Origin: a virus
Taxonomy: Duplodnaviria > Heunggongvirae > Uroviricota > Caudoviricetes
DNA: 17,379 nucleotides
Strand: one strand, 5' to 3'
Virus record (IMG/VR): IMGVR_UViG_2690316318_000021
Span: 1-17,379 of that record
How positions within the stretch are numbered: the stretch's first letter is position 1; each line of letters opens with the position of its first letter. Positions 6,001 through 9,000 of the stretch are shown here, piece after piece. The position numbers were made by a program.

Positions 6001-9000
6001 ACACGCCAGGTGTACGCGCTTTTATCAACAAAACCAGCCTTTTTCAGTTCCCATAGTTCGTTCAGCACTTCTTCACGACTGACATCAAGTCGCGCAGCAA
6101 GTTCTATGGATGTGGCTTTTCCCATTGCTTTCAGTGCGTCAAAAACAGTCTCCATTAAATTTTTCTCCTGGTAAAACTTACTTCGTGATTCCTGGCTGGA
6201 CGACATTCGGGCGCCAGCTTTCCCAGTTAAAATTCACCCATCGTCCGCCGTTCATGGTCATGCGATCCATAATCCTCTCGCCGAGCAATGTTTTCATGGC
6301 CCCATAGTTCAGGTTTGTCAGCATTCCCACGCTACGCATCGACGCTGTCCGTCGATCAATAATCTGGTGCAGTACCACCTGCTCGTTTTTCGTCTCGCGC
6401 TGAATGCCAATCTCATCAAGAACCAGCAGATCCACTTCGCACAGTTCCCGCAAAAATTTTTCGCCTGACTGCCCGTCGTCATAGCTGGCATGCAGGGCAC
6501 TCATAACATCAGCCACAGTAACCACAATCACTGTCTGGCCATCTTTCAGCAGGCTATTCCCGATAGCTGCCGCCAGATGGTTTTTTCCGGTACCAGGTTT
6601 TCCGCTGAACGCAAAATTTGTACACCCGGTCATCAGTTCATCAGCGATGGATTTCGCCTGACTCAACGCGTATCGCTGCCCTTCGTTCTGCACCTGGTAA
6701 TTCGAAAACGAGCATTTGCGGTGCAACGGCTGGATGCCAGAGCGATTCAGGATTTTTTCCACCCGCAACTGACGATTCAGGCGGTTGATCTCCTCGCAAC
6801 GTTTCTGGCCTTCTGCAAGTTGCCACTCGCGCCACTCCGCCACCGTTCTGAATGGGGCGGTTACATGTGGTGGGGTCATTCTGCGGATACGTTCAAGAAC
6901 GCCACCTGCCGCAATATTTTTCATGGTTCGTTACCCCCTGAAGCCTGGCGGGATCGCGCTGTCCGGCAACGAGACGGTGTTAACCTGCCGAGGCAACGTC
7001 TCCGGTCGAACGCCTTTCGGCGCGAACAAGCCCTGGTATTCGTTGGCGATGCTGTGTCGAATAACCTGCTCAGGGGTAAAACCCTGCTGGCGGAATTTTT
7101 CCAGTTCCCGTATCGCCCCGTTAGCGCCCTGCTCCGTTCGAATCGGTTTTCGCAATGCCTGCCTGAACTGAACCCACTCATGCCAGAGTGTTTCCGGCAA
7201 CCACTCAGGCAGAGCTATGGCCTCTGGTTCGAATTTTTTAGCCGCTCGTTTTTGGCGAGGGGGGTTCAGGGGGAGATCAGTATTTATATCTTCCTCTTCA
7301 TCTTCCTCTGGTAACGCTTTTTGATTCGTTTGTGTAACGCTGGCAGCGTTACCTTTTCGTTTCAGCTCGCGTATTTTTGTAACTCTCTCGTTTGTAACCG
7401 CCCGTTTTTTAGAGCTTTTTCCGTTATGACGTTCAAAGTTAGGTAGAGAAAGCCCACCGTCATTTTCGACCAGCCATCCAACCTGAATTAACGCATCAGC
7501 AAAACCAGCCATAAAAGTGATGCGATCTATTGCACTTTTTGTAACGCCACGAGCGTTACAATCTGCGTTACCGTCTATCATTTGTTGATCCGCCCATGCC
7601 CAGAAGCGAATAACCTTCCCTAATGCGGCATCTGGATCAATATTCAGAATCTCAGCAAGCCTGAATATTTCCGGCTTATCCGGCGTAATAACCTCGAGCT
7701 TTATCCAGTTTGAAGCCATTTGTTTTCACCTTGTAACGCTCGCAGCGTTACATTTAACTGATACCGAACAAAACAGTCCGGCACGATTAATTTCAATCAA
7801 TGCACTACGACAGAATCGCCGGGCGAGCCACCGCCGCTGAAATGTGCTTTCCGGTAAACGGCCTGAACTGCATCATCATGCGCATCAATTGCCGTACTCA
7901 ACGCTTCCTGTGCCGCCAGCAATGCCCGGCGTTCCAGGGTATCGAAAATGCTGAGTCGGTGGCGCAGTTCGCGCGGAAGGATTGCCAGAATTGCAGGGAT
8001 CAGTTTCTGAATTTTTTCCCTTTGCGCTTCCGTTTCACCTTTTAACCAACGGTGATAGATGTTCTGCTGATTGTTCCAGTCTTTACCTGGTATCAGGGGC
8101 AATTCGCCGCCCCCCTGGCGCAGATATTCTTCAGTAATTGCATTGGCTACCCATGCCTGCCCTTTTTCGGCTGCCAGGGCTAACAACACTGATTCGATGT
8201 GCTCATGCCTGATTTTCATGAATCAACCGCTCCTATGCTGTTTTCGCTATGCTTACCGCCTGGGGGGAATACATCGTCAAGCCCACAATGAGCGCCAAGC
8301 CGATTAAGGGTAGAAACTATTTTTCTGCACTCCTCTAGCCCAGGGGTACGAAAATTTGCTTCGTAATTTGCCAGTCGGCTTTGTATCCACCCTAACTGAA
8401 CAGCGAGTTGTCTTTGAGACAACCCAAGCTGTTTTCGATATGTTGAAATTTTGTTCATCATTACCTCCTGCTTCTATTATTCACATTTCGTGAGCAAGAT
8501 CAACTACAGATACGTGAGTACCGCTAGTTTCACACATCGTGATAAAATCGGAGCCATGAAAACCATTGCAGAACAAATAGGCGAGCGACTAAAAGCCACT
8601 CGCCTAAATCGAGGATTAAGTATGGGAAACCTGGCAAAACTATGTGGTTGGTCAGGTTCTTCTCGTATTGCTAACTACGAAGCTGGCACCAGGAGCGTGG
8701 GGGCTGAGGATGCGATCATCCTCGGCCAAGTACTAGGCATTTCCCCCGCAGAATTAATGTTCGGTGAACAGGAAAACACTTACTCGTGGTTAAATGATAA
8801 CCAGAAAAAAATGCTAGAACTGTTTAATCAGCTCCCAGGATCGGAACAAGCACGCATGATTGATCTGTTCGAAATCCGTCTTCAAGAGCTTGATGAGTAT
8901 GTGGAAAAATATCTAAGAAGCAGGCAACAGAAAAAATCCTCCTAAGCCTTTAATCTCCCTCGATTCCAATCAAAAAGCTCTCGCTATTAGCGAGGGCTTT

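Follow-up and report, generated by a model that had tools for sequence, protein, structure and literature searches.

Three perfect 19-bp palindromes, GTAACGC-N5-GCGTTAC, lie in and just upstream of a minus-strand replication initiator gene (6931-7719) in the virus record IMGVR_UViG_2690316318_000021, a member of the Caudoviricetes of which positions 1 to 17,379 were analysed (this whole stretch of 17,379 nucleotides is called the window below). The palindromes are probably the cognate sites of the N-terminal domain (N-domain) of the initiator, and would form a replication origin within the sequence that encodes the linker between the two domains of the protein, as in ori-lambda. This reading is favoured because the N-domain is the sole constant partner of the sites, because the initiator gene is followed by a helicase-loader gene, and because the best-conserved array of sites falls in the linker beside a strand-asymmetric tract.

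Palindromic sites in the window

The motif has exactly three matches in the 17.4-kb window, all of them perfect (7334-7352, 7541-7559 and 7733-7751), and no further match appears even when two mismatches are allowed. The chance expectation is 0.03, and none of 200 shuffled sequences reached three matches, again even with two mismatches allowed. The window contains 12 copies of the half-site GTAACGC, where 1.5 would be expected. Eight of these fall within 7311-7751, including two extra half-sites at 7311-7317 and 7565-7571. The original prediction had reported the same three palindromes and two half-sites and had considered chance unlikely, and on both points it was exact. It had also described the palindromes as evenly spaced, about 200 bp apart. 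The centre-to-centre distances are indeed 207 and 192 bp, but it is not the even spacing of three sites that is conserved. Relatives share the linker site and usually a second intragenic site 190-300 bp upstream, and a third site at -32 to -44 is restricted to the Enterobacterales. Similarly, two sites had been placed in ydaU and one 14 bp upstream of it; two are in fact inside the open reading frame 6931-7719, while the third ends 13 nt before its ATG. The gene itself could not be upheld as K-12-type ydaU, since only its C-terminal 124 amino acids match K-12 YdaU.

Site 2, the linker site (7334-7352; no strand is assigned to this or the other sites), reads GTAACGC-TGGCA-GCGTTAC and encodes G-N-A-A-S-V-T (amino acids 123-129) at the start of the disordered interdomain linker. 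It is a candidate for the core initiator-binding site of the origin. The half-site at 7311-7317 reads GCGTTAC on the gene strand and is oriented as a right arm. It lies 23 bp past the right arm of site 2, a distance that is 11 bp in most relatives, the window having a 12-nt insertion; on this comparison it is a conserved downstream member of the site-2 array.

Site 1 (7541-7559) reads GTAACGC-CACGA-GCGTTAC, lies in the N-domain coding sequence and is a candidate auxiliary initiator-binding site. It encodes C-N-A-R-G-V-T (amino acids 54-60), a lower-confidence stretch between helices in the structural model (mean predicted local distance difference test score, pLDDT, of 62 for amino acids 51-60). 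On the gene strand it appears as GGTAACGC-AGAT-TGTAACGC-TCGTG-GCGTTAC. The half-site at 7565-7571 (GTAACGC on the gene strand) precedes the left arm by 12 bp. It is site 1's ancestral left arm (D-G-N-A), and it counts as extra because a 12-nt insertion duplicated that arm, giving a -> -> <- arrangement. Site U (7733-7751) reads GTAACGC-TCGCA-GCGTTAC and lies in the 77-bp spacer between ydaT and the initiator gene, where it directly abuts an AAGGTG ribosome-binding site. Between sites 1 and 2, the lineage of the window also carries near-half-sites at 7379-7385, 7395-7401 and 7488-7494 (GTAACTC and TTAACGC with one mismatch each, and GTAACCG with two). The first and third of these stem from V-T codons of the basic helix described below, and neither is conserved outside this lineage.

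The initiator and the adjacent loader gene

The initiator gene encodes 262 amino acids that match PHROG 2509, 'replication initiation protein', over the full length (E 1.5e-88). The protein consists of an N-domain (amino acids 1 to about 123), a disordered linker (about 124-175) and a DnaT-like C-terminal domain (C-domain, 170-262). A Pfam search returned no match at E up to 10, including none to DUF1376, Phage_rep_O or Rep_3, and a profile of the N-domain gave no match to PDB sequences at E up to 10. The 'O-like' PHROG 678 matches only amino acids 78-243, mostly linker and C-domain. The C-domain, which comprises the C-terminal 90 or so residues, resembles that of DnaT (2ru8, E 2.8e-4; 9zbt, E 7e-4). 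The closest RefSeq copy is annotated as a hypothetical protein, and the gene is called ydaU in GenBank MN652886.

An AlphaFold2 model of the initiator is confident for amino acids 11-100 (pLDDT 81-95). The modelled elements are helices (16-25, 29-48, 61-68 and 73-80), then a beta-hairpin (84-91), a basic helix (102-123), disorder over about 124-175 and a helical C-domain. The modelled N-domain is winged-helix-like, and its weak structural neighbours are winged helix-turn-helix DNA binders and phage replisome organizers. The codons of site 2 specify the last part of the basic helix and the beginning of the disordered linker, and the site-2 array (7311-7352) covers amino acids 123-136.

Directly downstream on the minus strand lies a ydaV-like gene (6178-6924) for a helicase loader of the DnaC/IstB type of AAA+ proteins (Pfam IstB_IS21, 6.2e-20; Bac_DnaA ATPase, 1.3e-8), which is 91% identical in nucleotide sequence to K-12 Rac ydaV. 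The YdaV-like loader is the presumed partner of the initiator C-domain. At the start of that domain, a C-rich element (7262-7275, minus strand CCCCCTGAACCCCCC) encodes P-(L/P)-N-P-P. It recurs in relatives (L006 at +432, L008 at +433, L011 at +454), sometimes as a CCCCC...GGGGG palindrome, and is also found in K-12 YdaU; it may be a conserved peptide or a further DNA element.

Conservation and selection at the DNA level

Relatives of the N-domain are encoded by 60 GenBank phages at 32-96% identity. They include E. coli phage TL-2011b, a Klebsiella phage, Xanthomonas phage CP2, Xylella phage Usme, Salmonella phage epsilon15, a Vibrio phage, the Pseudomonas phages PAN70, VW-6S and phiPSA1, and the Ralstonia phages QkW1 and Raharianne. 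The domain also occurs in species-level genomes of Pseudomonadota, Planctomycetota, Verrucomicrobiota (Akkermansia), Ignavibacteriae and Latescibacterota. The N-domains of Planctomycetota (Stieleria, Novipirellula, Pirellula), Akkermansia and Latescibacterota are 44-56% identical and go with the same GTAACGC motif (L099-L178). A short contig labelled Streptomyces hayashii (L152) resembles the Pseudomonas group and may be contamination. These relatives differ in their neighbouring genes, in their C-domains (DnaT-like or other) and in their loaders (DnaC-like, P-like, DnaB or none), and some lack ydaT.

In most relatives, among homologues of 32-70% identity, the full palindrome or its TAACGC core is present at about +148 and at +340 to +390. 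A homologue of the linker site is found at +337 to +410 in nearly all of them, the distant ones included. Among 80 genome loci, drawn from species-level genomes of Pseudomonadota, Planctomycetota, Verrucomicrobiota and others, at least six of the seven arm pairs are present at site 1 in 74 (against 7 of 78 size-matched control intervals) and at site 2 in 62 (against 17 of 78). The two sites of one genome agree at 12-14 of the 14 arm bases.

A codon alignment of ten genes of the GTAACGC class, with a median nucleotide identity of 59% outside the arms, separates DNA-level from protein-level conservation. In pairs with the same amino acid, the third codon position is identical in 148 of 148 comparisons within the arms, against 894 of 2070 (43%) elsewhere. 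Glycine, asparagine and valine in the arms use one codon each (GGT, AAC and GTT), even where the GC content of third codon positions (GC3) is 0.76, and all other invariant residues of the alignment use two to five codons. The alanine codon whose third base falls in the spacer drifts. At the first codon of the right arm the amino acid varies (G/S/R/T) and xGC is kept in nine of ten genes. Further, 42 loci read the linker site in frame 1, as x-N-A-x-S-V-T, and 13 read it one base off in frame 0, as V-T-x-x-A-L-x, which rules out a protein-level explanation. Judged by these comparisons, the palindromes are under selection at the DNA level. The check on homologues that had been suggested in the original prediction has thus come out in its favour, the palindromes being kept at synonymous positions, in two frames and through the concerted switches described below.

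A scan of IMG/VR by DNA alone, for two GTAACGC palindromes 170-200 bp apart, found at least 120 loci, and all 120 of those listed encode the N-domain across the match. In the complete genomes of TL-2011b and epsilon15, the palindromes occur in the initiator gene only, a pattern that fits a local, cis-acting role better than a global regulator.

Half-site arrays and the purine tract

Each of the palindromes sits in the middle of a larger array, and that of site 2 consists of convergent half-sites. Cores in left-arm orientation lie at -12/-11 in 34 of 62 loci and at -24/-23 in 10 of 62, and cores in right-arm orientation at +12 in 59, at +23/+24 in 37 and at +35 in 12 of the 62. The pattern, -> -> -> <- <- <-, has a period of 11-12 bp, about one helical turn, and in some relatives the number of half-sites reaches 10-11. 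Additional half-site units of 12 nt lengthen the protein by G-N-A-x tetrapeptides. When 96 distinct 19-mers are compared, 93-96 of them have the same base at each of the core positions 2-6 and 14-18, and the spacer is free except for a preference for T8/A12. Dyad symmetry is broken by 66 non-wobble mismatches and two wobble pairs, which are confined to the outermost and innermost positions of the arms. The invariant core and the pattern of mismatches are the signature of sequence-specific recognition by a protein, not of an RNA stem.

Directly downstream of the site-2 array lies a purine tract (7281-7309, minus strand, AGAGGAAGATGAAGAGGAAGATATAAATA), in which 25 of 29 positions are purines and the A+T content is 67%. 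In relatives, a segment with at least 21 purines in 24 positions is present within 70 nt of site 2 in 51 of 62 loci, against 3% of control segments. In many phages the tract is the nucleotide-conserved AGAGAAGAGAAGAGAAGA (R-E-E-K-R-R-E), which includes rare AGA codons in high-GC genomes. The tract is a candidate DNA-unwinding element. No DnaA boxes were found in 7100-7900, and a search of Rfam with 7150-7900 gave no relevant match at E up to 1. On the plus strand, the site-2 palindrome followed by CTTTTCGTTT (7334-7361) scores as an intrinsic-terminator-like element antisense to the initiator gene; this score is probably a by-product of the palindrome and the T-rich complement of the coding sequence.

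Cassette exchange with K-12 Rac

The window region is a Rac-like prophage early region, and its comparison with the Rac prophage of K-12 links the sites to the N-domain. In blastn searches, 6100-7304 (91%) and 7799-8225 (92%) match K-12 Rac and nothing between them does. The segment 7305-7798 (494 bp, minus strand), here called the specificity cassette, is the only part of 6100-8225 without K-12 Rac homology. The spacer, the part of the gene that encodes the N-domain and all GTAACGC sites lie within it. One of its joints is in the purine tract that follows site 2 (7304/7305), the other at the ydaT stop codon. The racR-ydaS-ydaT-ydaU-ydaV-ydaW region of K-12 Rac contains no GTAACGC. At the protein level, BLASTP aligns only amino acids 139-262 with K-12 YdaU (124 residues, 81% identity); the gene lies between ydaT and ydaV, as K-12 ydaU does. 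An identity of the N-terminal 138 or so residues with K-12-type YdaU (DUF1376) was considered and rejected, there being no Pfam match and an hhalign probability of 0.13%.

By this comparison, the initiator is a chimera that joins an N-domain without a Pfam model to YdaU's DnaT-like C-domain. Sites, N-domain and spacer form one exchangeable cassette, because 7305-7798 alone differs from K-12 Rac and holds every site, and the C-domain and the loader are common to both prophages. The K-12 counterpart, oriJ with YdaU-YdaV, occupies the same slot (ydaT, initiator, ydaV, DUF1627) with an 81% identical C-domain and 91-92% identical flanks, but its N-domain is of the unrelated DUF1376 type, it lacks GTAACGC, and its repeats are direct where those of the window are palindromic. 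Experiments have employed oriJ as the origin of a plasmid (cited in PMC11014345, PMC3945230). In the K-12 ydaU cassette (L002, 2746-3045), five copies of TTSAACAYCWG in the same orientation were noted at 2746, 2758, 2791, 2950 and 3035, against 0.04 expected for a pattern that was derived post hoc. They are candidate iterons of the DUF1376-type YdaU, i.e. oriJ, in a position equivalent to that of the palindromes.

Concerted motif switches and the basic helix

Where the motif changes, it does so in a concerted manner, both sites of a genome differing in the same way. Raharianne-like phages carry GTAGACG-N6-CGTCTAC at both sites, and epsilon15-like phages GTCCGC-N7-GCGGAC (identical pairs in 71 of 80 loci against 0 of 158 control flanks); GTTGCGC is found at both sites of locus L150, CTAACG at both sites of L175 and GTCAC at both sites of the Vibrio phage. 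Two further motifs, GTGGCGC and CTAACGG, come from the linker site of distant relatives, the former from this site only. Site 1 of the epsilon15 class has another place in the protein, at +65.

The motif class follows the N-domain clade, not the host or the neighbouring genes. It is tracked by a segment of the predicted basic helix that corresponds to amino acids 106-113 of the window initiator. This segment is RA[LV]TxxRV with the half-site GTAACG, RALAAKRM with GTTGCG, RxxS/DAERK with GTCAC, RAQDADRK with GTCCGC and RAQKSDRQ with GTAGAC. Because the switches are few and their phylogeny is not corrected for, the assignment of basic-helix residues as determinants of specificity is only a lead. 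A site for a host factor was also considered and rejected, as phages of closely related hosts differ in motif class (GTAACGC in E. coli, GTCCGC in Salmonella), yet the same motif is found across phyla.

Site U, further arrays and promoters

Relatives from Escherichia/Shigella, Winslowiella, Mixta, Erwinia, Serratia and Pantoea have a perfect palindrome at -32 to -44, and their spacers cannot otherwise be aligned. In Pantoea the spacer carries a -> -> <- ... -> array, and ydaT lies directly upstream of the site-U spacer in E. coli only. The layout most often seen in the 80 IMG/VR loci that come nearest to the window is -32/+160/+367 (36 loci, with close variants in addition). Loci of the TL-2011b type are limited to +148/+357, and site U is not present in TL-2011b, Pseudomonas, Xanthomonas and other relatives. 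On this distribution, site U is a conserved, lineage-restricted addition. It is a candidate auxiliary origin site and/or autoregulatory operator, and autoregulation through it is plausible because it sits against the ribosome-binding site. No sigma-70-like promoter was found near any of the sites, the sole match being a pR-like promoter at 8503-8476.

In Xylella phage Usme (L423), two more perfect palindromes lie outside the initiator gene, at 26979-26995 and 42585-42601, where 0.0013 were expected. Each is followed by two more inverted half-sites with a period of 11-12 bp. The first overlaps the start of a minus-strand coding sequence (26665-27027) at the head of an operon for single-stranded DNA-binding protein, exonuclease and recombinase; the second lies at the end of the coding sequence 42273-42587.

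Proposed mechanism and alternative explanations

In the proposed mechanism, initiator dimers would bind head-to-head on each 19-bp palindrome through the half-site GTAACGC, with its invariant core TAACG, and further subunits would take the flanking half-sites one helical turn (11-12 bp) apart. The site-2 array (7311-7352) would nucleate an O-some-like complex that opens the adjacent purine/AT-rich tract (7281-7309), and the DnaT-like C-domain would recruit the YdaV (DnaC-like) loader with host DnaB. Site 1, 207 bp off, and site U, 192 bp further, would be auxiliary, with the complex possibly stabilised by looping or wrapping; through site U, the initiator may in addition repress its own gene. 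The inferred steps of this scheme are binding by the N-domain, activity as an origin, unwinding of the tract, recruitment of the loader, and looping or autoregulation. The idea of an origin embedded in the initiator gene had been raised in the original prediction, with cooperative sites for a dimeric regulator as the alternative, and the invariance of synonymous sites, the cassette exchange and the linker position beside the purine tract all support it.

A more elaborate version, in which a split origin overlaps the initiator gene and one assembly both fires replication and shuts the gene off, is possible but rather improbable. Dimers at the three sites would then bridge about 400 bp of initiator coding sequence, and transcription or translation would be blocked while the purine tract opens. 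With a site inside the coding sequence of the DNA-binding domain, the protein and its recognition sequence would therefore constrain each other.

Several points weigh against an origin at the palindromes. The sites are two or three separate palindromes 190-300 bp apart and not four adjacent iterons as in ori-lambda. The distances between them (189-244 bp) show no clear helical phasing, 3-nt and 12-nt coding indels dominating, and the purine tract of the window, at only 67% A+T, is weaker than that of most relatives. The position of site U against the ribosome-binding site fits autoregulation as well as origin function, and the additional Usme arrays suggest that the initiator may also be a regulator, or that there may be several origins. 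The conservation counts take no account of shared ancestry, and the independent specificity switches number only about 6-8, with phylogeny not corrected for. Finally, a literature search on ydaU and Rac replication, oriJ, the epsilon15 origin and the motif found no paper on this cassette or initiator family; the matches to the motif string were primers, and the oriJ papers concern K-12.

The sites might instead be purely autoregulatory operators or roadblocks, at which the initiator or a dimeric regulator represses transcription or translation of its own gene, with the origin elsewhere. In iteron plasmids, inverted repeats that contain the iteron half-site serve as operators of the rep gene (RepE, pSC101 RepA, pi), and this precedent, together with the position of site U and the Usme array that overlaps the start of an early gene, speaks for such a role. 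Most of the family, however, lacks site U, while nearly all members keep both intragenic sites. The array with the strongest conservation is some 350-400 bp inside the gene, in the linker and beside the purine tract, a position that agrees with ori-lambda and is a poor one for an operator, and the promoter search around the sites was negative. Pure autoregulation is therefore considered unlikely. Quite improbable is the view that the palindromes act as RNA or single-stranded DNA hairpins (7-bp stem, 5-nt loop) in mRNA stability, translational control, antisense termination or primosome assembly. Each palindrome is a perfect stem, concerted changes of the arms keep the pairing, the T-rich run after 7334-7352 on the plus strand was flagged as terminator-like, and DnaT, which the C-domain resembles, is a primosome protein. 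Yet it is the core sequence itself that is invariant (93-96 of 96), not merely its pairing, and the mismatches are almost never of the wobble type (66 against 2). Both sites of a genome have the same sequence, the half-sites that flank them as direct repeats lack a partner for pairing, an outer G...G that stays unpaired is retained at both sites in many Pseudomonas loci, and there is no Rfam match.

Operators of some other regulator, such as YdaT (CII-like), a Cro-like or RacR-like helix-turn-helix (HTH) protein or the DUF1627 protein, are a highly improbable explanation. Several HTH proteins are encoded within 2 kb, and YdaT and RacR had been named as possible binders in the original prediction, a suggestion that fares poorly: K-12 Rac has 92% identical ydaT and 91% identical ydaV stretches, yet its racR-ydaW region is devoid of GTAACGC. 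In relatives that bear the palindromes, ydaT, DUF1627 or these repressors are missing, motif class goes with the clade of the N-domain, and the published site of YdaT, TTGATT-N6-AATCAA, is a different one (PMC9986795). As for the palindromes being incidental, by chance or as a by-product of a repeated peptide x-N-A-x-x-V-T, the probability is practically nil. Both intragenic copies in the window do share a frame and encode similar heptapeptides. But only 0.03 palindromes were expected, the third copy lies outside coding sequence, 13 loci have the linker copy in the other frame, synonymous positions are invariant, and site 1 of epsilon15 (+65) and the Usme arrays lie elsewhere; frame usage, synonymous sites and the Usme arrays refute this origin of the motif.

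Neighbouring genes

On the minus strand, the early region comprises a Cro-like HTH gene (8216-8461), ydaT (7797-8219), the initiator gene, ydaV and a DUF1627 gene, and on the plus strand a gene for a repressor-like HTH protein. In complete phage genomes, the initiator adjoins a divergent-transcription switch, which confounds the mapping of origins by GC skew. Near-matches to the YdaT operator flank ydaT, at 7783-7800 (two mismatches, over the stop) and 8209-8226 (one mismatch, over the start); the five near-matches in the whole window, against 1.8 expected, are not significant. In epsilon15, PAT1 and Vibrio phage 1.211.B, a gene for a C5-cytosine DNA methyltransferase overlaps the start of the initiator gene (L014 1342-2511, L015 1450-2511 and L010 1504-2508), and the Vibrio phage has a second one downstream.

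Comparison with known replication origins

The proposed origin most resembles ori-lambda, which lies inside its initiator gene, between a DNA-binding N-domain and a loader-recruiting C-domain. The iterons of lambda are 19 bp long and have dyad symmetry. The likeness extends to the 19-bp sites with internal dyad symmetry, to the exchange of N-domain and sites as one specificity module with a shared C-domain and loader, and perhaps to the adjoining strand-asymmetric A+T-rich tract. Lambdoid origins lie midway along gene O and consist of iterons plus an AT-rich region, and in lambdoid and Shiga toxin (Stx) phages extra iterons lengthen the O protein (PMC7466680). Changes in repeat number there add or remove linker amino acids, as the 12-nt units do here. 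The window initiator differs in that it is no Phage_rep_O/lambda O homologue by Pfam, its sites form two or three clusters 190-300 bp apart in place of four to six adjacent iterons, and one cluster is embedded in the sequence that encodes the DNA-binding domain. Its arrays are convergent (-> -> <- <-), its C-domain is DnaT-like, and the motif is kept across phyla.

Other systems are more distant. The Rep proteins of iteron plasmids (F RepE, pSC101/pPS10 RepA, R6K pi, P1 RepA) belong to a different type, as the window initiator has no Rep_3 Pfam match, its sites are intragenic and its context is that of a phage with a DnaC-like loader. In SPP1, the initiator G38P binds repeats in its own gene (oriL, gene 38), and a second cluster of sites, oriR, lies elsewhere; the additional arrays of Usme are comparable to this oriL/oriR pair. 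SPP1 differs in its unrelated protein family and direct-repeat boxes, and the window has no array outside the cassette. Replication of SPP1 that depends on oriL has been described (PMC5737612). The likeness to E. coli DnaT covers the C-terminal 90 or so amino acids, the part without palindromes, but DnaT has no sequence-specific N-domain or cognate site. Thus, an origin in its own initiator gene, with N-domain and sites as a specificity module, is classical. New are the initiator family (without a Pfam model or experimental work found in the literature), the split layout with a site in the coding sequence of the DNA-binding domain, the convergent half-site arrays, and a 14-bp specificity that is near-invariant across phyla, with rare concerted switches.

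Significance

If the proposed reading is correct, it would provide a DNA signature for origin prediction, namely paired palindromes of the GTNNCGC type at about +150 and +350 plus a purine tract. It would also define natural specificity classes with candidate determinant residues, T109 and V113 in the window protein. If the split-origin version holds, the mutual constraint between protein and site could explain how a 14-bp specificity is frozen across phyla and switches in rare concerted jumps, and the system would be a tractable natural readout of a protein-DNA recognition code. A DNA-level function that overrides codon usage would be relevant to recoding, to analyses of nonsynonymous against synonymous substitution (dN/dS) and to the design of phage-derived replicons. 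Rac-type prophages with different cassettes would be expected to be compatible in replication. An origin and a recognition sequence would be assigned to a widespread initiator family that has no Pfam model and is 'hypothetical' in RefSeq, and which spans elements of Enterobacterales, Pseudomonas, Xanthomonas/Xylella, Ralstonia, Vibrio, Akkermansia and Planctomycetota.

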